NCBI GenBank assembly: GCA_046727015.1
Contig: JBKPBU010000339.1
Span: forward strand, 1 to 48,544
Length of the DNA: 48,544 nucleotides
Origin: Candidatus Methylomirabilota bacterium
Lineage (GTDB): Bacteria; Methylomirabilota; Methylomirabilia; Rokubacteriales; CSP1-6
Reading direction: 5' to 3'
In this document: positions 10,807-45,719 of the stretch, one piece after another
How positions within the stretch are numbered: the first letter of the stretch is position 1
How the letters are laid out: each line of letters begins with the position of its first letter
Program-made: the position numbers and the translations under genes
The notes under the pieces: model-generated
Told to the model about the DNA's origin: nothing
Database searches by the model: none
What the model saw: only the letters and a program-made list of their open reading frames with translations

Positions 10807-11289
10807 ATGGGCTGGAAACCGGTGACCAAGGCAGCCACGACGTCCGGAAGCGCTGAGGGCACGACCCCGCTCAACGCCTTCGACAACGCCCTCCTGGCGG
10901 CGGGCATCGGCAATATCAATCTCGTCAAGGTTTCCTCCATCCTGCCGCCCGAGACTGCCGTCGTCGATCTGCCCCGGCTCCGCCCGGGCGCGATCGTGCC
11001 CACGGCGTACGCCGCCATGACCAGTGAAGTGCCCGGAGAGGTCGTGGCCGCGGCCGTCGGCTGGGCCCGCCCCACCGATCCGAAGGCCAATGGCGTGATC
11101 ATGGAGTTTCACGACAAGGCCACACGGGAAGAGGCCGAGCGCGCCATCGTCCACATGCTGGAAGAGGCCTTCAGGGCTCGCGGCTGGACGGTGCGTGACA
11201 TGAAGGTCTGCGGCGTCGAGCATCGCGTCGAGCGCACCGGCTGCGCCCTCGCGGCCGTGACGCTGCTCTCCGACGACGACCTCGTCTAG
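10807..11289 (+). CDS. pdaD: Pyruvoyl-dependent arginine decarboxylase
   Basis: NLVKVSSILPP matches the PdaD self-processing Ser-Ser site context. Size (160 aa) fits, and an agmatinase gene follows. Confidence 0.85.
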   Translation: MGWKPVTKAATTSGSAEGTTPLNAFDNALLAAGIGNINLVKVSSILPPETAVVDLPRLRPGAIVPTAYAAMTSEVPGEVVAAAVGWARPTDPKANGVIMEFHDKATREEAERAIVHMLEEAFRARGWTVRDMKVCGVEHRVERTGCALAAVTLLSDDDLV

Positions 11290-11433
11290 CAGGCTGCCGA
11301 TAAGGGGCCATCTGCGACCCCTACGTAGTTACCTATTGGGGCGAGCTTGCGGCACCCCTCAACGTACAGCGAGTACGCCTCGGGGTGCCGCCGCGCTCGC
11401 CGCCTCGCATCTGACCCCTTCTCGACAGCCTGC
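11289..11433 (-). repeat. Hairpin-forming intergenic repeat, copy A (inverted orientation)
   Basis: GCAGGCTGCCGATAAGGGG ... CCCCTTCTCGACAGCCTGC terminal inverted repeats. Shares the blocks CAACGTAC-loop-GTACGCCTCG and CTACGTAGTTACCTATTGGGG with the other copies. Starts on the last base of the pdaD TAG. Confidence 0.85.
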
Positions 11434-11460
11434 ATCAGCATCCTGTCTAGTTAACCAGCC

Positions 11461-12318: not shown

Positions 12319-13088
12319 GCGAACGCGGGCAGTACTCGGCGCCACGCTACTACGAGATCGCTTTCGACATGAACCGGAAGCAAGAGGTGGACTTCCTCGC
12401 CCACTGCTTCCGCCGTTACGCCAAGCGCCCCGTCAAGGCCGTGCTCGACATCGCCTGCGGCACGGGCCCGCACCTGATCAGGCTCGGCCGCCGGGGCTAC
12501 CGGATGTCCGGCCTCGATCTCTCCCCCGAGAACATCGACTTCCTCCGGCACAGGGCGGCGGAGGAGAGCCTCGGCGTGAGTCTGCACGTGGCGGACATGA
12601 CCCGCTTCAAGCTGCCCAAGCCGGTGGACGCCGCCATCTGCATGCAGGACTCGCAGGGACACCTGCTCACGAATGAGGCCATCCTCGCCCACTTCCGTTG
12701 CGTGGCCAAGGCCGTCCGCAAGGGCGGGGTCTACGTCTTCGACCGCTACATGTGCTCATCGTGGACGGACCCGGCCCGGCGCTGGTCGTGGACCAGGCAA
12801 CGCGGGCGGGCAACGGTGCGCGCGACGTTCGAGGCCCTCAAGGACCTCAATCCGGTGACGCAGACGTTCTACGAGGACATGGAGCTCGAGGCCCACGAAA
12901 ACGGGCGCCGCCACGTCTACCACCAGCGCCACGCTTCGCGCATGGTCTTTCCACAAGAGCTCCGGGCCCTCGTCGCATTGGCGGGCGGCTTCGACCTGGT
13001 CGAGTGGTTCTACGGCTTCAAGCCCCGTTTGAAGCTCGACCGCGCTCACCACCCCCTGCTCATGGTCGTCGTCCTCCGGAAAAGATAA
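12315..13088 (+). CDS. Class I SAM-dependent methyltransferase
   Basis: VLDIACGTGPHLIRLGRRGYRMSGLDLS is the SAM-binding motif I. Start taken as the GTG at 12315 (GTGA overlap with the speB stop). The GTG at 12303 is an alternative. Confidence 0.7.
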   Translation: MSERGQYSAPRYYEIAFDMNRKQEVDFLAHCFRRYAKRPVKAVLDIACGTGPHLIRLGRRGYRMSGLDLSPENIDFLRHRAAEESLGVSLHVADMTRFKLPKPVDAAICMQDSQGHLLTNEAILAHFRCVAKAVRKGGVYVFDRYMCSSWTDPARRWSWTRQRGRATVRATFEALKDLNPVTQTFYEDMELEAHENGRRHVYHQRHASRMVFPQELRALVALAGGFDLVEWFYGFKPRLKLDRAHHPLLMVVVLRKR

Positions 13089-13105
13089 AGGGGCGCGCCG
13101 CTCCC

Positions 13106-14266
13106 GTGGCCAGGCTCGTTCTCAAGCGCGGCGCCGAGCAGCGAGTCAACGCCGGGCACCCGTGGATTTACCGGAGCCAGATCGCCGACCTCAAGGGCTT
13201 CTCCCAGGCCGGCGAGGCCGTCGAGGTGCTTGATTCGGGCGGCCGATATCTCGGCCAGGGCTTCTACAACCCCCGCCCGTCGCTCTGCTGCCGCCTGCTC
13301 ACCCGGCGTGACGAGGCCATCGACGCCGGATTCTTCATGCGCGGGCTCGAGGCCGCCTGGGAGTACCGCCGGACGGCGGGCCTGATCTCCGATGCCTATC
13401 GCCTCTGCTGGAGCGAGGCAGACGGGCTGCCCGGCCTCGTCGTGGACCGCTATGGCCCAGTGAGCGTGGTCCAGTGCCTGACGCTCGGGATGTTCAGGGC
13501 AGCGGAGTGGATCTCCGCGGCCCTCGCGCGACTCTTCCCGAACGGCAGCATCCACCGGCTCGATGAGACGACCGCGGCGCGCCTCGAAGGATTCGAGGCG
13601 CGCCAGGACCCCGCCGGAATCGAGCTGGTGATCACCGAGGGCAACTGCCGCTTCGGCGTCACCCCAGGCGCGGGCCACAAGACCGGCTTCTACCTCGACC
13701 AGGCCGAGAACCGCATCCTCGTGGCTCGGCATGCTGCCGGCCGGCGAATGCTCGACGCTTTCTGCTTCTCGGGCGCCTTCGCCTGCCACGCGCTCCGATC
13801 CGGCGCGACCCAGGCGCTCCTGCTCGACTCGTCCGCCGACACGCTCGCGCTCGCGCGACGGAACCTCGAGCTGAACGGCGCCGCGGACCGGGCCCTGCTC
13901 AGGGAGGGCAATGCATTCGATCTCCTCAGGGGTCTCGAGGCGACGGGCGAGCGCTTCGGCATAGTCGTCCTCGATCCTCCCCCCTTCACCCGGCGGAAGG
14001 ACTCGATCGACGCGGCGGCGCGCGGCTACAAGGAGATCAACATGCGCGGGCTCAGGCTCCTCGAGCCCGGCGGCGTGGTCGCAACCTTCTCCTGCTCCCA
14101 CCACATCACCCCCAGCCTCTTCGAAGAAATCTGCCGCGAAGCCGCCGGCGACGCAGGCGTCGCCGTCCGCGTCCTCCAAACCCTGAGCCAAAGCCGCGAC
14201 CACCCCGTCCTACTGACGGTCCCAGAATCCCGCTATCTAACCGGTCTCCTCCTCGAAGCCGTTTAG
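13106..14266 (+). CDS. rlmI: RlmI-like PUA-domain rRNA (cytosine-C5) methyltransferase
   Basis: LKRGAEQRVNAGHPWIYRSQI N-terminus, TGFYLDQ, and VVLDPPPF. Start set to the GTG at 13106. The upstream 136 aa of the track ORF are Arg/Pro-rich shadow sequence overlapping the previous gene. Confidence 0.8.
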   Translation: MARLVLKRGAEQRVNAGHPWIYRSQIADLKGFSQAGEAVEVLDSGGRYLGQGFYNPRPSLCCRLLTRRDEAIDAGFFMRGLEAAWEYRRTAGLISDAYRLCWSEADGLPGLVVDRYGPVSVVQCLTLGMFRAAEWISAALARLFPNGSIHRLDETTAARLEGFEARQDPAGIELVITEGNCRFGVTPGAGHKTGFYLDQAENRILVARHAAGRRMLDAFCFSGAFACHALRSGATQALLLDSSADTLALARRNLELNGAADRALLREGNAFDLLRGLEATGERFGIVVLDPPPFTRRKDSIDAAARGYKEINMRGLRLLEPGGVVATFSCSHHITPSLFEEICREAAGDAGVAVRVLQTLSQSRDHPVLLTVPESRYLTGLLLEAV

Positions 14267-14284
14267 TCCTCGGAGCGGCAGGTC

Positions 14285-14426
14285 GCAGGGCGTCGAGAAG
14301 GGTCCAGATGCGAGGCGGCGCCCGAAGGCAGCATGCGAGGCGTACTCCTGTACGTTGAGCGTGCTGCCGAGGGCGCCCCAATGTAACTATGTCTGGGTCG
14401 CAGATGGGCCCTTATCGACGCCCTGC
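14285..14426 (+). repeat. Hairpin-forming intergenic repeat, copy B1
   Basis: GCAGGGCGTCGAGAAGGGTCC ... GGGCCCTTATCGACGCCCTGC terminal inverted repeats. Internal complementary arms are GGCAGCA/TGCTGCC. Apical element is CGTAC-TCCT-GTACG. Confidence 0.88.
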
Positions 14427-14459
14427 TACTCGAAGCCGTCTAGCAAGCAGCGGAAAGTC

Positions 14460-14585
14460 GCAGGGCGTCGAGAAGGGTCCAGATGCGAGGCGGCGCCCGA
14501 GTGCCGCAGGTGAGGCGTACTCCTGTACGTTGAACCTGCGGCCGAGGGCGCCAACGAAGCAGATGGGCCCTTATCGACGCCCTGC
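14460..14585 (+). repeat. Hairpin-forming intergenic repeat, copy B2 (tandem to B1, internal deletion)
   Basis: Same termini as B1, with arms GCCGCAGG/CCTGCGGC. It lacks the CCAATGTAACTATGTCTGGGTC block. Its last base is the first base (on the plus strand) of the copD stop codon. Confidence 0.88.
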
Positions 14586-16171
14586 TAGCTCTCGCGGTAC
14601 AGCAACAACATCACGCCCACAAGCGCGAGGCCGACCGACCATACCTTCCCCGGCAGCGCCCTCTCACTGGGCGGCAGCCTGAGCTCGAGCCAGCGTCCCC
14701 AGCCCACGAGCATGGCGAGGACGCCCAGCGGCGCGTGCGTCACTTCGATGAGGTACTCGCTCTTGATGTTGAGCGAGGCGTGGGAGTGGGTCAGGAGCAG
14801 GGCGCCGCCGACCGAGCAGAGGATGGGAAAGACCAGCGCCGCCCGCGGCGAGCGGATCCGGCCGGTACGCACCATCCACTCGAACGTGCCGAACCCCAGC
14901 ACGAGAAGCACGAATATGCGGTGCTGCACCACCTCCGAGTAGCCCATGCCCTCCCAGAAGCCCTGCGGACCCAATGGCCAGGAGCCGGGATCATTGCGCA
15001 CGAGCAGGAAGGCCGCCAGCGCGAAGAAGACGAGGGGCCAATGCCGCGCCCACGGCACCCAGCCCGTGCGGTACAGGACGGCGAGGGTGCCCATGATCAG
15101 GACGATCAGGCCGGCCATGTGGTGGTTGAACTCGCTCCACTGCCTGTCCGCGTCGTTGCGCGGAGCCTCGCGATCCTCGAGGGGCATGTCGGCGAGCCGT
15201 GACGAGGTGAAGGACGGCGCGCGCGGCGTGAAGACGTGAGCGACTTCGGCGAGTGTGGCACGGTCGTTGACCACGTCCACGGCGGGCGGCAGCGAGGTGA
15301 GCGACGCCGCGGCGAAGAGCACGGTGATACCGAGGCCAAGCTCGACCTCCACGAAGCGGCGCAGGCGGAGCAGCGAGACCGGGTCGGCCGAGGGCAGCCG
15401 CCGCACGACGAAGAAGTTGAGCGCTCCCAACACCAGGATGAGCGCGAGCACCATCATCTTCGTCCCTACCATCATGCCGTACGCCGTGCCGGTGAAGCCC
15501 GGGACGCCGTCCACGTAGTAGTAGGTCAGCCCGAGGCCGGCCGCGACGAGGACGGCCACCGAGCAGAGCGCCATGGACGAGAAGCGCTTGAGCAGGAGCG
15601 CCGACCACGCGTCCCCGCCACGACCGTAGGCCGCGACCGTCAGATGCATGAGGCCGCCCACCCAGACGGAGGCGGCATACTGGTGCACGGCGTCCACGAA
15701 AAACAGGACGCCTCCGTGCTGGAGGCGCGCGGCCGCGTGGCTGATCGCCGCCGCGGTGGCGGCGAGCGCCACCGTCAACGCCACCATGACGGCCCACCAG
15801 CCAGGCGCGTCGGGACGCCGCCGCAGCCGGAGCGCGCCCACCACGAGCGCGCCACAGATCAGCACTCGGAGCGCGCTCGCCTGGAAGTAGGCCGTGCCGA
15901 GCACGAGGCGGATGGGCCAGTCTTGTCCGCCCGAGAGCACCATCTGCTGGACCGTGAGCGACAGGAGCTGGCCGGCGGTCACGGCGGCGGCGCCGGCAGC
16001 GACGAGGATCAGGAGCCGGCCCATCATGGACGAGAGTCCGGGGGGGGAGAGCTCGGGGCGCGGACGCAGGGCGGGCTTGAGCACGACGAGCGCGAAGAGC
16101 ACGCCTCCGATGGCGGCGGCCTGGCCGCAGAGGGCCAGGCCCCGGAGCAGGACGTCGGCGAATCCGGCCAC
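14585..16171 (-). CDS. CopD-family multi-pass membrane protein (copper resistance/export-like), long form
   Basis: 528 aa and very hydrophobic throughout. The N-terminal half resembles CopD. The C-terminal half possibly resembles caa3-type CtaG, which I could not verify. GTG start 3 nt after the upstream stop. Confidence 0.6.
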   Translation of the reverse strand: MAGFADVLLRGLALCGQAAAIGGVLFALVVLKPALRPRPELSPPGLSSMMGRLLILVAAGAAAVTAGQLLSLTVQQMVLSGGQDWPIRLVLGTAYFQASALRVLICGALVVGALRLRRRPDAPGWWAVMVALTVALAATAAAISHAAARLQHGGVLFFVDAVHQYAASVWVGGLMHLTVAAYGRGGDAWSALLLKRFSSMALCSVAVLVAAGLGLTYYYVDGVPGFTGTAYGMMVGTKMMVLALILVLGALNFFVVRRLPSADPVSLLRLRRFVEVELGLGITVLFAAASLTSLPPAVDVVNDRATLAEVAHVFTPRAPSFTSSRLADMPLEDREAPRNDADRQWSEFNHHMAGLIVLIMGTLAVLYRTGWVPWARHWPLVFFALAAFLLVRNDPGSWPLGPQGFWEGMGYSEVVQHRIFVLLVLGFGTFEWMVRTGRIRSPRAALVFPILCSVGGALLLTHSHASLNIKSEYLIEVTHAPLGVLAMLVGWGRWLELRLPPSERALPGKVWSVGLALVGVMLLLYRES

Positions 16172-20490: not shown

Positions 20491-20580
20491 GCGGCTGATA
20501 AAGGCCCATCTGCGTCATCTACCGAGGGGCGTGTTGGGGCACCCTCGGCCGCACGCTCAACGTACAGAGAGTACGCCTCG
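20491..20580 (-). repeat. Hairpin-repeat fragment, copy C (right half only)
   Basis: GCGGCTGATAAAGGCCCATCTGCG ... CTCAACGTACAGAGAGTACGCCTCG matches one terminus, one arm and the apical block. The other arm and terminus are absent. Confidence 0.6.
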
Positions 20581-20601
20581 CGCGCGGATACTGGTAGTCA
20601 G

Positions 20602-33989: not shown

Positions 33990-34173
33990 GCAGGGCGGCG
34001 AGAAGGGTCCAGATGCGAGGCGGCGACCGAGAGCTGCGGGCGAGGCGTATGACTGTCTCAGCCCTCGCCTCGTGGCTTCGCCCCTCAGCTCGAACTGCCA
34101 CGAGCCCGCAGCCGAGGGAGCCCCAATAGGTAACTACGTCTGGGTCGCAGCGGGGCCCTTATCGGCGGCCTGC
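33990..34173 (+). repeat. Hairpin-forming intergenic repeat, copy D (expanded centre)
   Basis: GCAGGGCGGCGAGAAGGGTCC ... GGGGCCCTTATCGGCGGCCTGC termini, arms GCTGCGGGC/GCCCGCAGC, and a longer divergent central part. Its last base is part of the htrA-like stop codon. Confidence 0.85.
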
Positions 34174-35195
34174 TACTGCGTTTTGCCGCTGAGCTCGACG
34201 ATCTTGCCCGCGCGGAGGACCTTCATCGTGAATGGAGTGCCGGCAGCCGCGCCTGACAGCCGATGGCGGATCTTCTCTATGTTGTCGTCCGAGCCCACGG
34301 CCATGCCGTCGACTGACAGGATGACGTCGCCGCCCACCGCGATCTGCTGGCCGCCGATCGTGGCGATCTTCTCCCCGCCCAAGAGCCCCATGTCCCAACC
34401 GATCGAGCCCTGGGCCACCGTCTTGACGAGAAAGCCCGCGGGCTCGGGCAGATTGAAGATGGCGGCGAGGTCGCCTGTCAGCATCGTGCCGTCGATCCCG
34501 CTCCAGAAGGATTTCCCCTCGAGCAGGAGCCTCTTGGCCGTGTTGATAGTCACGACGAAGCCCAGTCCTTCGCTGCCGCCGGACTTCGAGATATTGTGGC
34601 TGACGATCCCGATCACTTCGGCCGCCATGCTGAACATCGGCCCGCCCGAGTTGCCCGTGTTGATCGTGGCGGTGGTCTGGAAGAACTCCGCCAGGGGCAT
34701 GCTCTTGTAGACGGTGTTGGGCGGCCAGCGGGCGCTGATCCAGCCCACGCTCATCGAGTGCGCCAGCCCATACGGCGCGCCGATGATCATGACCTGGTCG
34801 CCCACCCGGACGGTGCCCGAATCCGCCATCCGTGCCGGCGTCATGGCCTGGGGCACCCGCTCCATCTGGAGGAGTGAGAGATCGGCGGCGGGCTCGGAGG
34901 CGACGATCTTGGCCGGCACCCGCTCACCGCCGAGGGCCTCGACCGTGATCTCATCCATCGCGTTGACGACGTGCGCGGCCGTCATCACCTTGCCGTCGGC
35001 CGTGATCAGCACGCCCGAGCCCGTCTCGCTGAAGCGGGTGATGCCCACGTTGCTGACGTCCCTCCCTCTCGCCCGGATCACGACGACAGAGGGATTGGCC
35101 TTGCGGAAGACCTCGTTGAGGTTCTGGGACTGGGCAGGTGCGGCGAGCACGACCAGCGCCGATCCGGCGAGCGCGGCTGCGAAGAATCGCTTCAC
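34173..35195 (-). CDS. HtrA/DegP-family periplasmic serine protease with PDZ domain
   Basis: Signal peptide, TAAHVV (His), GNSGGPMF (Ser), and a C-terminal PDZ-like segment. Confidence 0.85.
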   Translation of the reverse strand: MKRFFAAALAGSALVVLAAPAQSQNLNEVFRKANPSVVVIRARGRDVSNVGITRFSETGSGVLITADGKVMTAAHVVNAMDEITVEALGGERVPAKIVASEPAADLSLLQMERVPQAMTPARMADSGTVRVGDQVMIIGAPYGLAHSMSVGWISARWPPNTVYKSMPLAEFFQTTATINTGNSGGPMFSMAAEVIGIVSHNISKSGGSEGLGFVVTINTAKRLLLEGKSFWSGIDGTMLTGDLAAIFNLPEPAGFLVKTVAQGSIGWDMGLLGGEKIATIGGQQIAVGGDVILSVDGMAVGSDDNIEKIRHRLSGAAAGTPFTMKVLRAGKIVELSGKTQ

Positions 35196-35708: not shown

Positions 35709-36371
35709 CTACTTGATGTCCAGCGGGACTACCGCCGTCCCCTTGGGCGGCGCGAATGCGAAGAGGGTATCACTGAGGCCGGGGTTGAGGACAACCCGGT
35801 TGAACGTCATCGTCACGGTGTTCTGCAGCTGGTCGTAGAGCACAGCCTGGCGGACCAGGTAGTGGTCCTTCGGGTCGACCGTGAGGACCAGTCGCGTCAG
35901 CAGCGGTGTCGGCTTCTTGGGCGTGAGGTCGAGGACGGGCCGGCCGGAAGCGTCCGTCTTGTTGGCCGGGTTGAGGAAGCGCACGGAAAATTCCTCGCGC
36001 ACCTTCCCGAGCCCCTGCAGAAAGCTCCCGGCAGGGCCGGCGAGCGCCTTGGGCGCATCGCCCTTGTTGACCTGGTTGAGCTCCGGCGTGTAGACCCAGA
36101 GGTACGTGCCGTCGGAGATGATCTGCTGGGGCGCCGGACTCTTGTAGTCCCAGCGCATCTTGCCGCCCTTCTTGAGATAGACCGTGCCCTCGGCCTTGAC
36201 GTCCTGCCCGAGGCTCTTGTTCCGCGCCACCTGGTTGAACTCAGCCTGCAAGTCAGCCATCTTGCCGTAGGTCGCTTCGACCGCGTTCACGACCTGGTCC
36301 AGCTCCTGCGCGGGCGCGGAGACGGGGAAGAGGAGGAGACACGCCAGGACGAGGATCGAAGCGCCCCTCAC
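35709..36371 (-). CDS. lolA: Outer-membrane lipoprotein carrier LolA
   Basis: GTVYLKKGGKMRWDYKSP ... ISDGTYLWVYTPE. Start set to the GTG at 36371, which gives a clean signal peptide MRGASILVLACLLLFPVSAPA-QE. The ATG at 36449 would translate through two palindromic repeats. Confidence 0.8.
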   Translation of the reverse strand: MRGASILVLACLLLFPVSAPAQELDQVVNAVEATYGKMADLQAEFNQVARNKSLGQDVKAEGTVYLKKGGKMRWDYKSPAPQQIISDGTYLWVYTPELNQVNKGDAPKALAGPAGSFLQGLGKVREEFSVRFLNPANKTDASGRPVLDLTPKKPTPLLTRLVLTVDPKDHYLVRQAVLYDQLQNTVTMTFNRVVLNPGLSDTLFAFAPPKGTAVVPLDIK

Positions 36372-36375
36372 CCTG

Positions 36376-36398
36376 CCCTCTCCCCTGAGGGGAGAGGG
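36376..36398. repeat. Perfect 23-nt palindrome CCCTCTCCCCT-G-AGGGGAGAGGG
   Basis: Same arms as 1544-1566. Located in the ftsK-lolA junction. Confidence 0.85.
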
Positions 36399-36412
36399 TG
36401 GAAGAGGGACTG

Positions 36413-36433
36413 TCTCTCCACCGAGGGGAGAGA
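36413..36433. repeat. Related short inverted repeat TCTCTCC-N7-GGAGAGA
   Basis: 7-bp arms sharing the GGAGAG core, 14 nt from the 23-nt palindrome. Confidence 0.6.
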
Positions 36434-36448
36434 GTGACTTCGGCCGCA

Positions 36449-41248: not shown

Positions 41249-41874
41249 GCCCGGCGCCGCGCCGCCAGCTCGGCCAGGAGCGCGCGGTGGACCGCGCGCA
41301 CCTGGCGCTCCGTCTCCTCGCGCGTGCCCGAGTTGTCGATGACGTGATCCGCGAGCTTCGCTTTCTCGGCGATGGGCATCTGGCTCGCGATCCGCGCCCG
41401 GGCGTCGGCCTCGCGCAGGCCATCGCGCTCCATGAGCCTCCGGACCTCGATCTCGGGATCGGCGAAAACCACGACCACGCGGTCCATCTTGGCCACGCCG
41501 CCGGACTCGAAGAGGAGCGCCGCGTCCCAGAGGACGACGCCCTCGAAGCTCTCCTCGTCGAGGAGGGAGAGGATACGCTGCTGCCGCGCTCCGATGGCCG
41601 GGTGGGTGATCTCTTCTAGCCGCTTCCGCCTGGCCGGATCCGCGAAGACGATAGCCCCCAGGGCCTTGCGGTCCAGCGAGCCGTCGTCCTGGACGAGCTG
41701 GGAGCCGAACTCCTCGACGATCCGGGCATAGGCGGGCTGCCCGGGCATCACGACCTCCCGCGAGAGGAGATCGGCGTCGATGACGCGCGCGCCTTCGTGG
41801 GCGAACATCGCGCTCACGGTGCTCTTCCCGGTGGCGATGCTGCCGGTGAGGCCGACGAGGAGGAAGCGCCTCAC
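41245..41874 (-). CDS. coaE: Dephospho-CoA kinase
   Basis: LVGLTGSIATGKSTV P-loop at the N-terminus. GTGA overlap with the polA stop. Confidence 0.88.
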   Translation of the reverse strand: MRRFLLVGLTGSIATGKSTVSAMFAHEGARVIDADLLSREVVMPGQPAYARIVEEFGSQLVQDDGSLDRKALGAIVFADPARRKRLEEITHPAIGARQQRILSLLDEESFEGVVLWDAALLFESGGVAKMDRVVVVFADPEIEVRRLMERDGLREADARARIASQMPIAEKAKLADHVIDNSGTREETERQVRAVHRALLAELAARRRA

Positions 41875-44800
41875 GCCTGGGCCCAGTCGGCGCCCGTCTT
41901 GATGTCCACCTTGAGCGGGACGTCGAGCGACATCGCCGCCTCCATCACCTCACGGGCGAGAGCCTCGAGCCGCGGCACTTCGTCCTCGGGCGCCTCAAAG
42001 AGCAGCTCGTCGTGGACCTGGAGCAGCATGCGGCTCCTGAGGCCGCTCGCGGCGAGGGCAGCCGCCATGCGCACCATGGCGATCTTGGTCAGGTCGGCTG
42101 CCGTACCCTGGATCGGCGCATTGGTCGCCATGCGCTCGGCGAAGCCCCGGAGGTTCGGATTGCCGCTTCGGAGCTCAGGGATATAGCGACGCCTGCCGAA
42201 GAGAGTCTGGACGAAGCCCCGCTCCCGTCCCTCTGCGACCGTCCGCTCGAGGTACGCCTTGACCTTGGGATGGCGCTGGAAGAACCGGGTGAGGAATTCC
42301 TGCGCTTCTTTGGGCGTGATCGAGAGGCCGCGGGAGAGCCCGAAGGCCGTGACTCCGTAGATGACGGAGAAGTTGGTCGTCTTGGCCACGTCCCGCTGCT
42401 CCGAGGTGACTTTGTCCAGCTCGACGCCGAAGACTTCCGCCGCCGTGCGACGGTGGATGTCCTCCCCCGCGCGAAAGGCCGCGATGAGGCTTTCCTCGCC
42501 GGAGACGTGGGCAAGGATGCGAAGCTCGATCTGCGAGTAGTCAGCCGCGAGGAAGAGATGGCCCGGATCGGGCACGAAGGCGGCGCGGATGCGGCGGCCG
42601 AGCTCCGTGCGGATGGGGATGTTCTGGAGATTGGGACCAGAGGAATTGTGCACGACGATGCCGTCCGTAATGTACTGCTCCCCCTCCACCGCGATATCGT
42701 ACATGGGGACTGGCGGCTCCCACGCTACAGACCGCACGCGGATCTCGAAGTACTGTCCCGAGACCGCCTCTGACAGAAATGACGGCACCTTTTCACCGCT
42801 GCCCTCGAGCGCATTGATGATCCGCTCGGCCCGAGGCAGCGTGCACGTCACTCGTCCCGCGGCGTACTTATGCATGAAAACGTACAGCGCCTGGGGAACT
42901 TCCCCGTTTAGCCGTCGCTCGCTGTCGTACAGAGCCGCCTTGATGCCGAGGATCTCGTCGGATGTCGGGAGAGTCAGCACTTCAGCGCAGCTCTTGGCGC
43001 TCCGTCCGCCGATCAGCCGATCGAGCTGGGACCGTTTCTTGCTCGAGATGAAGCCGATCTGCTCCCGGAATCTCCATTTCGATCTATCGCCCAGAACAAT
43101 CAGGGTGTGTCGCGGTGCGTGCCCGCGAGGGTCCTCACCGCCGTTCGCAATGCTGGACGGAATTCCGAACATCGCGAGCAGATGATGAACGCCTTCCAGC
43201 ATGTCCCTCGATACTGACCGGACCGACAGAGTGTCGGAGGCCGTCCCGTCTCCCTCGAAGTATCCGCGGAGAAACGCGGCCACGATGTCCCGCGGCGCGA
43301 AGAATAGGCTCTGGGGTACCTGAATCACTTTGGAGGTGCCGCCGGCACCGAGCTGCTCGACCATGCCGCACACATCCATGCTCGACAGCTCCAAGACGGG
43401 ACAGGATCGGGCCTTTCGGTACGTCGGGCTCCTCCCGAACAATCTCTCCATGGCGCCGGCGAAGTGTCGAGCAACATCCTGCTCCGGCCAGTCGAATGAC
43501 AGGACAAGCTTCGCGGGCTTCCCGTTGTAATTACTGCGCGCGATATGGCCGTCGGCCATCGTGTATCCGACCATCTCCGCAAGGTCCGCAGACCATTCCG
43601 CCGGGAGCCCCGGAGTCTTGCGCGTGCGATAGGCCGCGGTTTGCTCCACGCGAAGCGCAGTGGAAGTGCCGAACAATCCCTCGGTAAAGCTCATGTACAG
43701 AGACACATCGGGCTTGAGGTCCGACGCTTCAACCCACCGGCCCGTTGTTCGGAGGCCATGGTCGGGACTGCAGCGGAGGATGATTCCCGTCGAGAGGGTG
43801 ATCGCCATCACTGGTTTCACACCGGTCATCTCCGCCGCCAGCACCCTCCGGGGGCCACGACAGGTCCGCACAAGATCCCCCACCTGGACAGTTTCGATGC
43901 CCACTAGCCCCCTTTGGGTATTTACCAGCGAGCCGGCGGGGAGGCAGGAAAGTCTTCCCGTTGCGGCGACGAGCTGATTGAAAGACGTGTGGATGCGTCC
44001 CGTCGCCGGATTGATCAAGGTGGGGAGCGAGTCGGCGTAAGTGGACTTGAGCTTGCTGAGCGTCCGGTGCTCGACGATCTTGGCCGGCAGCTCGTGGCCC
44101 AGCGCCAGCTGCTCCAGCACGTCGGCATCGGTCGAGTAGCCGGTCTTGGTCTTCTTCACGGGCGGGAGCTTCAGCTTCTCGAAGAGGATGCGCGCCATCT
44201 GCTTGGGCGAGCCGATGTTGAACTCCTCCCCCGCCAGGGCGTAAATGCTGCGCGTGATTTGCTCGAGCGACAGGTCGAGCTCCTTCGAGAATTCCGCGAG
44301 CCGAGCCGGATCTACCCGGATGCCGTGGCGCTCCATCTCTGACAGCACCGGCACGAGCGAACGTTCGACGTCTTCATAGAGGGCCAAGAGACCCACTTCC
44401 TTGAGCGCGCGCGGCAGCATCTCCCAAAGCTGCCAGACCCAGCGAGCGCGGCTGCCCGGCGCCGCCAGCCCCGGCCCTTCGCCCAGGAGCTCCGCGCACA
44501 CCTCGTCGAGCTTGTAGTTGGTCCGCGCGGGATTCAGGAGATAGGCGCCGAGCGCGGTGTCCTCGAGGGCGGGAGCGCTGCCGCCCCGCGCCGCCCACCA
44601 CTCGACGAGGTGCTTGACATCGTGGCCGATGAGCCGCCGGCCGCCGAAGTCGGGGAGCGAAGCGCCCAAGGGCAAGAGCGCGCGCTCCGCGGCCGGATGG
44701 TAGAGACCGAGGGCCGTCATGGACGGATCGGGAGAGGTGCCGTCCCCCACCCAGTCGACCGCGACGGGCGCGTCTGCGGGGACGGCCTCCAGCCATTGAC

Positions 44801-45719
44801 GGAGCGCCTCGGCGCCGTCGAGCACGGGCATGGGCTCTCCCGTCACCTGGACGGGCGCCGCGGCGGGGAGCTGGCGCAACAGGGTGTGGAACTCGAGCTC
44901 GGTCCAGAGCGTCCGGAGCCGCTCCCAGTCCGGCTCCTGACGCCTGAAAGCTTCGAGGTCCTGCTCGATCGGGACGCGCGTGCTCACGGTGGCCAGCTCC
45001 CGCGAGAGGAGCGCCTGCTGGCGATGGGCCGCGAGGATCTCGCGCGCTTTGCCCGTGACGAGCGTGAGATTGTCGTAGAGCCGCGCCACGCTGCCGAACT
45101 GCGAGATCAGCTTGACCGCGGTCTTCTCGCCGACGCCGGGCACGCCCGGAATATTGTCGATGCTGTCGCCCATGAGGGCCAGGAGGTCCGGGATGTGCTC
45201 CGGCCCCACTCCCCACTTCGCGGTGACGGCGGCCTCGTCGAACCATACGGGCTCACCCCGTACATTGGTCGCGAGCACCCGCACCTTCGGGCCGACCAGC
45301 TGGAGCATGTCCTTGTCGCCCGTGACCAGCACCATCTGGACCGGCTCCGCGCGCATCTTCTCGACGAGTGTGCCCATCACGTCGTCGGCCTCGAAGCCCG
45401 GCACCTCCAGGAGCGGGAGGCGCAGCGCCTCGAAGAGCGTCTTGACGTAGGGGATCTGGCTGCGGAGATCGTCGGGCGTCGCCGCACGCGTCTCCTTGTA
45501 GGACGGCAGCTTCTCCTCCCGGAAGGTGGGACCCGGCGGATCCCACGCCACCGCCACGTACTCCGGGTTCTCCTCGCGCAGGAGCTTCCAGAGCATCGTG
45601 GACATCCCGAAGATGGCATTCGTCAGCTGGCCCCTCGAGGTGCGGAAGTCGTACGGCAGCGCGTGGTAGGCGCGGTAGAGATAGCCCGGCGCGTCCACGA
45701 CGAAGAAGCGTGCGCTCAC
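41871..45719 (-). CDS. polA: DNA polymerase I, interrupted in frame by an intein
   Basis: 5'-nuclease N-terminus (GYLYRAYHALP, GFEADDV, GVPGVGEKTA). Polymerase motifs are ATGRLS / SSGPNLQNIP, DYSQIELR and QVHDELLFE. The protein is 1282 aa rather than about 850-930 aa because of the insert at 42645-43946. Confidence 0.93.
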   Translation of the reverse strand: MSARFFVVDAPGYLYRAYHALPYDFRTSRGQLTNAIFGMSTMLWKLLREENPEYVAVAWDPPGPTFREEKLPSYKETRAATPDDLRSQIPYVKTLFEALRLPLLEVPGFEADDVMGTLVEKMRAEPVQMVLVTGDKDMLQLVGPKVRVLATNVRGEPVWFDEAAVTAKWGVGPEHIPDLLALMGDSIDNIPGVPGVGEKTAVKLISQFGSVARLYDNLTLVTGKAREILAAHRQQALLSRELATVSTRVPIEQDLEAFRRQEPDWERLRTLWTELEFHTLLRQLPAAAPVQVTGEPMPVLDGAEALRQWLEAVPADAPVAVDWVGDGTSPDPSMTALGLYHPAAERALLPLGASLPDFGGRRLIGHDVKHLVEWWAARGGSAPALEDTALGAYLLNPARTNYKLDEVCAELLGEGPGLAAPGSRARWVWQLWEMLPRALKEVGLLALYEDVERSLVPVLSEMERHGIRVDPARLAEFSKELDLSLEQITRSIYALAGEEFNIGSPKQMARILFEKLKLPPVKKTKTGYSTDADVLEQLALGHELPAKIVEHRTLSKLKSTYADSLPTLINPATGRIHTSFNQLVAATGRLSCLPAGSLVNTQRGLVGIETVQVGDLVRTCRGPRRVLAAEMTGVKPVMAITLSTGIILRCSPDHGLRTTGRWVEASDLKPDVSLYMSFTEGLFGTSTALRVEQTAAYRTRKTPGLPAEWSADLAEMVGYTMADGHIARSNYNGKPAKLVLSFDWPEQDVARHFAGAMERLFGRSPTYRKARSCPVLELSSMDVCGMVEQLGAGGTSKVIQVPQSLFFAPRDIVAAFLRGYFEGDGTASDTLSVRSVSRDMLEGVHHLLAMFGIPSSIANGGEDPRGHAPRHTLIVLGDRSKWRFREQIGFISSKKRSQLDRLIGGRSAKSCAEVLTLPTSDEILGIKAALYDSERRLNGEVPQALYVFMHKYAAGRVTCTLPRAERIINALEGSGEKVPSFLSEAVSGQYFEIRVRSVAWEPPVPMYDIAVEGEQYITDGIVVHNSSGPNLQNIPIRTELGRRIRAAFVPDPGHLFLAADYSQIELRILAHVSGEESLIAAFRAGEDIHRRTAAEVFGVELDKVTSEQRDVAKTTNFSVIYGVTAFGLSRGLSITPKEAQEFLTRFFQRHPKVKAYLERTVAEGRERGFVQTLFGRRRYIPELRSGNPNLRGFAERMATNAPIQGTAADLTKIAMVRMAAALAASGLRSRMLLQVHDELLFEAPEDEVPRLEALAREVMEAAMSLDVPLKVDIKTGADWAQA
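42645..43946 (-). mobile_element. Intein with LAGLIDADG homing-endonuclease domain inside polA (434 codons)
   Basis: Begins with Cys (CLPAGSLVNT) directly after ATGRLS and ends VVHN directly before SSGPNLQNIP. Internal SPDH (block-B-like), LAEMVGYTMADGHI and VAAFLRGYFEGDGT (two LAGLIDADG motifs). Removing it restores ATGRLSSSGPNLQNIP. Codons are visibly more A/T-rich than the flanking polA sequence. Confidence 0.87.

Follow-up and report, generated by a model that had tools for sequence, protein, structure and literature searches.

The window analysed here is a 48,544-nt contig stretch with ~70% G+C from a Candidatus Methylomirabilota bacterium. Its gene content is solely chromosomal housekeeping, including recA, recX, alaS, ftsK, polA, murG, ddl and the genes for RNase J and polyamine synthesis, and its pdaD protein is also present on JGI metagenome contigs. 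Several of its intergenic regions hold copies of a hairpin-forming repeat, which a first-pass annotation had described as four full copies and one half copy. We find that these copies belong to a multi-copy, dispersed and strand-specifically folded family whose members have been gained, lost, replaced and tandem-duplicated, and have served as the landing site for a second repeat. The family is apparently previously undescribed. Palindromic intergenic repeats are of an ordinary kind in bacteria, and what is unusual here is the combination of a G.A-rich core that is invariant across a phylum, ends that vary, and an association with CTAG at stop codons.

All four full copies proposed earlier are supported by direct reading of the sequence, by end-block matches and by a covariance model (Table 1). 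Both end blocks match at precisely these four sites in the window and in none of 100 shuffles. The covariance model, scored at each window position, picks out the same five sites with the rest not above noise, and a repeat search of the window ties together the same copy positions. The half copy had been located correctly at 20491-20580, but its extent is revised here to 20491-20599 on the minus strand, where nhmmer matches 20589-20491 and the covariance model 20538-20599. The complementary arm pairs quoted for the individual copies were verified by reading, namely GGCAGCA/TGCTGCC in the copy at 14285, GCCGCAGG/CCTGCGGC in that at 14460, GGCACCCC/GGGGTGCC plus GCGAGC/GCTCGC at 11289, and GCTGCGGGC/GCCCGCAGC at 33990. 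Three of the four full copies fold with energies of -100 to -104 kcal/mol and z scores of -11 to -13, whereas the copy at 33990 folds more weakly (z -3.4) because ~50 nt have been inserted at its apex.

The gene context of the copies is as the first-pass annotation had claimed. The tandem pair at 14285 and 14460 lies between convergent methyltransferase and CopD genes, and the copy at 33990 between convergent CopC and protease genes. The two remaining copies sit within co-directional pairs, one being antisense between pdaD and speB and the other, the partial copy at 20491, being in sense orientation between the genes for a nucleotidyltransferase and a 285-amino-acid open reading frame (ORF). 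A direct-repeat family with a spacing of 175 (D1) covers the tandem pair, and the upstream gene ends in 15 nt (14252-14266, CTCGAAGCCGTYTAG) that recur between the two copies. This shared gene-end piece shows that the pair arose by duplication of a ~175-nt unit that included the target. Beyond the far side of the 11289 copy, a GTCTAG repeats the GTCTAG found at the pdaD stop codon (11284-11289). The GC skew of the window is too flat to assign a direction of replication.

Table 1. Repeat copies in the window and the features that adjoin them
Feature	Position	Strand	Remarks
Standard copy, 126 nt	14460-14585	+	Top covariance-model match, 131.5 bits; -99.9 kcal/mol, z -12.8; layout P1, P2 (AAGGGUCCA/UGGGCCCUU), tandem G.A loop, P3, internal loop GAGGC/AACGAA, P4-P6, 4-nt apical loop
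Full copy, 142 nt	14285-14426	+	92.5 bits; 22-nt A/T-richer block (14378-14399) instead of AACGAA loop
Full copy, 145 nt	11289-11433	-	77.5 bits; A/T-richer block 11317-11340; antisense between pdaD and speB
Full copy, 184 nt	33990-34173	+	A/T-richer block 34123-34146; second small repeat nested in apex (~34050-34099)
Partial copy, apex and 3' arm only	20491-20599	-	~Model positions 33/42-122; no 5' arm
pdaD stop TAG	11287-11289		Shares one base with end of 11289 copy
CTA at end of 33990 copy	34173-34175		Starts on last base of copy; TAG stop of minus-strand protease gene
Left extension of 14285 copy	14267-14284	+	18-nt spacer from TAG stop (14264-14266) to P1; resembles degenerate 5' arm
Left extension of second tandem copy	14444-14459	+	Preceded by CTAG (14440-14443)
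Duplicate of final 15 nt of upstream gene	14429-14443	+	Original at 14252-14266
CTAG at right junction of 14460 copy	14585-14588		Minus-strand TAG within it is stop of CopD gene (14585-16171)
Far side of 11289 copy	11434-11450	-	Extension 11434-11446, then CTAG 11447-11450

Host range and anatomy of the family

A pattern made of 21 specified bases of the 5' block was scanned against 185,579 species-representative genomes, and the matches listed comprise at least 114 loci from ~60 assemblies. These loci (~800 kb, labelled L0xx or L1xx) and the window are the basis for the family-wide counts given throughout. Approximately three-quarters of the listed loci are labelled Rokubacteria, Rokuibacteriota, Methylomirabilota or Methylomirabilia. 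A profile search with nhmmer on these sequences yielded 159 matches, which merge into 146 elements including 114 that are full-length. Among the matches listed, the modal length is 126-127 nt, as in the copy at 14460, and many pattern matches are no more than 70 nt away from a contig end, as expected of a dispersed repeat that breaks short-read assemblies. Rokubacteria are abundant in soil and groundwater and are known only from metagenomes, and a repeat of this kind bears on their assembly and binning.

A few of the listed loci are labelled as other taxa, such as Nitrosocosmicus, Opitutaceae and Xanthobacteraceae, and most of these are on small contigs that are probably mis-binned. The contig of locus L085, from an Opitutaceae bin, encodes proteins with 91-94% amino-acid identity to the pdaD-speB-methyltransferase operon of the window, and therefore at least some such contigs look mis-binned. 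Rokubacteria-type copies on contigs binned to archaea or to other phyla were seen at L014, L096 (Nitrosocosmicus bin), L085, L104, L105, L041 and L068. The exception to the small, probably mis-binned contigs is a Myxococcales-labelled assembly, in which five copies that form a young sub-family occur on contigs of up to 248 kb.

No named family had been recognised in the first-pass annotation, and the searches made here agree. The whole window has no match to Rfam 15 at the gathering threshold, and positions 14200-14650 searched with lax filters gave only chance-level matches (E >= 0.27). The plasmid, phage and viral-contig collections searched contain no match to the repeat. A literature search found nothing relevant on Rokubacteria repeats, and the core sequence strings appear in no paper found.

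The most conserved part of the element is a two-stranded, purine-rich core, GAGAAGGGUCCAGAUGCGAGGCG / CAACGAAGCAGAUGGGCCCUUAUC, and throughout the phylum its two strands (23-24 nt) hardly vary. This is true even of the 3' block CAACGAAGCAGAUGGGCCCUUAUC, which was outside the search pattern. The earlier proposal that selection acts on the fold rather than on the sequence needs amending, in that the fold is not all that is constrained, and the invariance extends to features that are not Watson-Crick pairs. Around the core, the outer stem P1 of ~10 bp varies in sequence from copy to copy while its complementarity is kept. It is followed inward by a G bulge or G.A mismatch and then by stem P2, in which a U.G wobble is conserved. 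Next comes a symmetric tandem G.A loop, with CAGAUG facing CAGAUG, which leads to stem P3 (UGC/GCA) and to the internal loop GAGGC/AACGAA. Stems P4 and P5, with GAA/GAG between them, are variable but, like P1, keep their complementarity. The internal loops are purine-rich throughout on the strand that carries GAGAAGGG. A terminal inverted repeat of ~20 bp had been described at the ends of the element; its inner 8-9 bp (GAGAAGGG/CCCUUAUC) are indeed conserved, but its outer 10 bp change from one copy to another.

The apical domain occurs in two types, GAGGCGUAC...GUACGUUGAG or CGACUGAGGCGUA...UACGCCGCAGGGAG, and is dispensable. Locus L068 consists of a 62-nt core alone, L054 is without P5-P6, and other copies have insertions. 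The A/T-richer block reported earlier is present in three of the window copies, where it takes the place of the AACGAA loop, and among the 114 full copies sampled it is confined to the window organism. Because the L085 orthologue of the pdaD-speB copy has the same stems with the standard loop, the block must have spread among copies within this lineage. The repeat nested in the apex of the 33990 copy is ~40-50 nt long and reads GTTCGAGCTGAGGGGCGAAGCCACGAGGCGAGGGCTGAG on the opposite strand. It is also nested in apexes in L027, L085, L093, L099 and L101, and stands alone in L048, L072, L101 and L113.

Two other interpretations of the sequence were considered and rejected. An ATG follows GAGAAGGG, but the 'codons' downstream fall in co-varying stems and no conserved peptide results. 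A K-turn in the core loop failed to fit when drawn by hand.

Covariation and strand specificity

Co-variation between the arms, on which the first-pass annotation had based its case for a constrained fold, holds both on 66 copies and within five orthologous copies. An alignment of the 66 copies was made with MAFFT and fitted to no structure. In this alignment, standard pairs occupy 97.5% of cells compared with 83.8% after shuffling, and changes on both sides of a pair are found at 22 of the 37 pairs (299 cells). The covariation score is 0.366, whereas shuffled alignments give 0.123 (0 of 500 reach the observed value) and sliding the pairing partners by 1-3 columns gives 0.04-0.09. On the three points by which that annotation had proposed to judge its claim, further copies were found in other genomes, covariation was supported and no known family was matched.

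The fold is also specific to one strand. Using RNA parameters, the complement is the less stable of the two in 98 of 99 copies, the GAGAAGGG strand having a mean advantage of 15.8 kcal/mol, and with DNA parameters one copy gave -52.1 vs -47.3 kcal/mol. Wobbles in P1 are likewise asymmetric, with 49 G.U cells vs 11 A.C cells, and the same bias is seen in every gene-orientation class. Because this bias is independent of the strand of neighbouring genes, the constraint belongs to the element and not to a host transcript that crosses it. G.T is the most tolerated mismatch in DNA, and the bias therefore does not separate RNA from single-stranded DNA.

Stop codons, CTAG and turnover of copies

Genes in all listed loci were called by a codon-usage model trained on those data. 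Of the 114 full copies, all but one fall outside called genes, and the family is thus intergenic. Gaps that contain an element comprise 30 convergent, 45 co-directional and 6 divergent cases, compared with 70, 447 and 95 for gaps that lack one, such that convergent gaps are enriched and divergent gaps are depleted for elements. The downstream gene is opposite in strand to the element in 72 of 88 cases. When upstream and downstream genes are both considered, there are 41 opposite/opposite, 31 same/opposite, 9 same/same and 7 opposite/same arrangements. The distance between the element's 3' end and the stop codon of the opposite-strand gene has a median of 0 nt, and spacing on the upstream side is looser. 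Within co-directional pairs, 41 copies are antisense (~80%) and nine are sense. Three of these nine come from the Myxococcales assembly, and the one sense copy of this kind in the window, at 20491, has lost its 5' arm.

The stop codons that abut the element are TAG in 43 cases, TAA in 13 and TGA in 8, compared with 432 TGA, 278 TAG and 68 TAA for all called genes. At six loci (L036, L040, L082, L098, L107 and L112) the adjoining ORF crosses P1 and ends at a TAA within GATAAGGG, and here the stop codon appears to come from the element. The tetranucleotide CTAG is scarce, with 280 sites in 800 kb (0.00033 per nt), of which 115 overlap called stop codons. It is ~9-fold enriched near elements, as 80 of the 280 sites fall in the 3.3% of sequence that is in, or at most 45 nt from, an element. 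CTAG is found at the right junction of 30 of 98 copies and within 50 nt leftward of 19, and 13 copies have it on both sides (co-occurrence odds ratio 7.9, p = 1.7e-4). Where a left CTAG is present, it lies 13-25 nt before P1. The left extension that results is conserved within sub-families, resembles a degenerate second 5' arm, and also forms the spacer of tandem arrays.

Comparison of related loci reveals turnover of copies. The gap between pdaD and speB is filled in the window and in L085, whose proteins are 91% identical, and is empty in L023 and L037, at ~70% amino-acid identity to the window. The empty sites read TAG CGG TTG or similar. As the natural stop codon at these sites is also TAG, the element landed at an existing TAG and did not supply one. 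A second site, after the methyltransferase gene, is filled by an element of apical type A in L085 and of type B in L023; L037 has a truncated remnant there, and the window has nothing. This pattern indicates replacement and loss. At this empty site in the window (13075-13100), AGATAAAGGGGC extends across the stop codon and resembles the GATAAGGGSC arm of the element, which could reflect chance or a remnant.

Tandem arrays of the element are present among the listed loci. Median identity among copies is 0.81-0.88 within a genome vs 0.78 between genomes, and the five copies of the Myxococcales assembly, although at unrelated loci, share 96-99% identity, indicating a recent burst. In this young sub-family (L053, L073, L090 and L117), TTGAC occurs 5-15 variable bases after the element in four of the five copies and the next gene is co-oriented, which may denote a preference for sites just upstream of promoters. 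Vertical descent also occurs. At one site directly after a relA/spoT gene, five species, with RelA proteins of 88-93% identity, have orthologous copies. Descent with compensatory change and turnover both operate in the family.

Mobility, rival explanations and neighbouring repeats

The repeat was compared with several known classes of element. ERIC sequences are imperfect palindromes of ~127 bp that are intergenic, often transcribed, found in either orientation, subject to insertion variants and conserved across related genera. The present repeat resembles them in size, insertion variants and position, but differs in its host, which is Rokubacteria and not an enterobacterium or Vibrio, in its variable outer 10 bp, in its strand-biased fold and in abutting TAG/CTAG stop codons. 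To our knowledge, the ERIC sequence is unrelated.

REP sequences and REPINs are dispersed extragenic palindromes located after genes, which are recognised as folded single strands by the Y1/HUH protein RAYT with a tetranucleotide tag by the stem (PMC3733652). Like these, the repeat is found after genes, between convergent or co-directional genes, and forms dimers and clusters. However, its unit is not an imperfect palindrome of 20-40 nt, two of which in inverted order make up a REPIN, and no RAYT gene was seen in the window. The REP tag GTAG/CGTC is fixed, whereas the right junction here, read on the opposite strand, is CTAG in 26 cases, GTAG in 13, TTAG in 10 and other or none in 49 (n=98), and is thus enriched but not fixed. 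A REP dimer was also rejected as a description of the element, as each 51-nt arm alone folds no better than shuffled sequences (z -0.07 to -0.96).

Correia/NEMIS and other miniature inverted-repeat transposable elements (MITEs) are small, non-coding and multi-copy, form long hairpins and show presence/absence polymorphism. The repeat shares these properties, the polymorphism being that of the pdaD-speB and post-methyltransferase sites. In contrast to these elements, no conserved terminal sequence, general target-site duplication or related transposase-bearing element was found, and the outer 10 bp, where terminal inverted repeats of a classical MITE would lie, are shared only within sub-families. 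A mobile MITE-like repeat is nevertheless the best fit among the roles that the first-pass annotation had listed, although conserved ends, a general target-site duplication and a parent insertion sequence were not found.

Integron attC sites, such as the ~124-bp Vibrio cholerae repeats, are similar in length, in preserving structure over sequence, in having one folding strand with unpaired or bulged bases and a variable apex, and in their position immediately behind an ORF to which the folded strand is antisense. Unlike attC sites, the base of the stem is variable here and lacks RYYYAAC/GTTRRRY core sites, and copies are dispersed between housekeeping genes that face either way, with no cassette array and, in the window, no integrase. 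In sum, the repeat lacks the palindromic unit of REP, the conserved ends of classical MITEs, the core sites of attC and the U-tract of an intrinsic terminator.

The explanation that we favour, and to which we give an even chance of being correct, is a family of non-coding, non-autonomous, structured interspersed repeats that is moved in trans and is ERIC/REPIN/MITE-like. An enzyme encoded elsewhere would copy or move the element. It would recognise the folded single strand, comprising core and stems, and not double-stranded ends, as HUH/Y1-type transposases do with REP, REPIN and IS200/IS605 elements. The strand-specific fold, the conserved mismatches and the variable ends around a fixed core all point to this form of recognition. 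CTAG would be the preferred target, and because this tetranucleotide survives mostly at stop codons in a genome of 70% G+C, such a preference would explain the adjacency to stop codons. A strong hairpin may be harmful in operon transcripts, so that co-directional copies persist mainly antisense or truncated; the orientation bias in co-directional pairs and the lost 5' arm of the 20491 copy fit selection of this kind against hairpins in polycistronic transcripts. Copies at the ends of transcription units would be tolerated and may act there as 3'-end hairpins.

A number of observations weigh against this explanation. As the first-pass annotation had noted, no transposase is found among the genes of the window, nor is there an integrase. 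No transposase was found among the neighbouring proteins that are recurrent or of high identity in the ~800 kb of listed loci, which appear to be housekeeping by sequence reading, with no family search made. The outer 10 bp vary from copy to copy, as the ends of classical transposons do not, and a longest-shared-word test for flanking direct repeats gave only chance expectation, indicating no general target-site duplication. CTAG lies directly at the 3' end of the strand that folds better, whereas the IS200/IS605 target lies 5' of the active strand. In the five relA/spoT copies both partners have changed at 11 pairs while few pairs are broken, and orthologous copies are mostly 85-97% identical. 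These findings suggest constraint on resident copies, which is not predicted for a purely selfish element. The results also do not tell folded DNA from folded RNA.

Candidates for a linked mobility function were likewise sought near the copies. No multi-copy protein was found there, as the protein clusters are large housekeeping-like families and syntenic orthologues. Matches to the left arm only, considered as possible ends of a larger autonomous parent element, proved on following up to be truncated or deleted copies.

The alternative that survives best, which we nevertheless consider improbable, is that the element is a cis-acting RNA of the host whose hairpin ends or stabilises neighbouring transcripts, or slows terminating ribosomes after the stop codon, with its spread being secondary. 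Such a role would suit the position of copies at gene 3' ends, their enrichment between convergent genes, the typical absence of any spacer before the stop codon and the compensatory changes that keep pairing in orthologous copies. Moreover, ribosome stalling has been reported for REP sequences at most 15 nt from a stop codon (PMC12306157). However, the abutted stop codon belongs to the gene on the opposite strand, and its mRNA would bear the weaker form of the hairpin with A.C mismatches and pyrimidine loops. The preference for G.U over A.C points to the other strand, and does so in the opposite/opposite class as well (16 vs 3), and a site that is filled in one genome may have an empty counterpart in a relative. 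Neither promoter-like sites nor U-tract terminator-like sites were predicted at any copy, and the T content of the 12 nt beyond the hairpin is 16% and 23% on its two sides. The lack of a U-tract on either side, the independence of the wobble asymmetry from host-gene strand and the predominance of antisense copies in co-directional pairs also leave unsupported the classical terminator role that had been listed as an option.

More doubtful still is a cut-and-paste MITE of a CTAG-targeting DDE transposon, either IS630/Tc1-like and duplicating TA or IS5-like and duplicating CTAG, for which the hairpin would be a by-product of long inverted ends. The strong, co-occurring enrichment of CTAG on both sides is what this model would predict, and there is a sub-family, CTAGAGCGAT...ATCGCTCTAG, with identical ends at 8 or more loci, mostly in one assembly. 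Direct repeats of CTAGC or CTAGAC also flank three copies together with their extensions. Yet the left junction is usually without TA or CTAG, the ends vary while the interior is fixed, and no parent insertion sequence was found. Recognition of a double-stranded site would also leave the conserved arm mismatches, the one-strand wobble bias and the compensatory changes of the inner stems unexplained.

The least probable of these alternatives is an RNA function of the GAGAAGGG strand, either as a structured RNA gene in many copies or as an RNA motif that binds protein. In its favour are the invariant core, the purine-rich internal loops, the conserved U.G wobble and tandem G.A pairs, and an apex that, as in many RNA families, varies in length, here from the 62-nt minimal form of L068 to insertion forms. 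However, nothing is conserved family-wide upstream of P1, no promoter-like site is predicted, no Rfam family matches, most copies would need to be transcribed antisense to operons, and turnover by gain, loss and tandem duplication is not usual in RNA genes.

Beyond a trans-mobilised repeat of familiar type, there is a low probability that the element is the substrate of an undescribed single-strand system. This could be a new form of single-stranded DNA transposition or recombination in which a conserved G.A-rich rod, and not the terminal sequence, is recognised and then joined beside CTAG, or a new multi-copy RNA class with a dedicated binding protein. If so, the system would have been maintained across a whole uncultured phylum. 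The apparent targeting of CTAG at stop codons with no known transposase linked to it presents a mobility puzzle, and the fixed non-canonical features and strand bias make the family well suited to examining whether selection on bacterial palindromic repeats acts at the level of DNA or of RNA.

Several further elements were noted. A small hairpin repeat, GTGATCGAGCGAAGCGAGGATCAC, adjoins the relA-site copies at L011 (5240-5270), L019 (1690-1870), L063 (3900-3960) and L114 (240-265). It occurs one to four times and forms a tandem array with a period of ~50 nt in L019. The window itself contains a second, unrelated intergenic repeat, CCCTCTCCCCTCAGGGGAGAGGG...GGTGAGGGG, at 1544-1584 and 36358-36398 (also 36400-36440), which is inverted at its two intergenic sites and 93% complementary over 41 nt. 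Lastly, the DNA polymerase I gene on the minus strand (41871-45719) encodes 1282 amino acids and includes an intein with a LAGLIDADG homing-endonuclease domain at approximately residues 629-1025.

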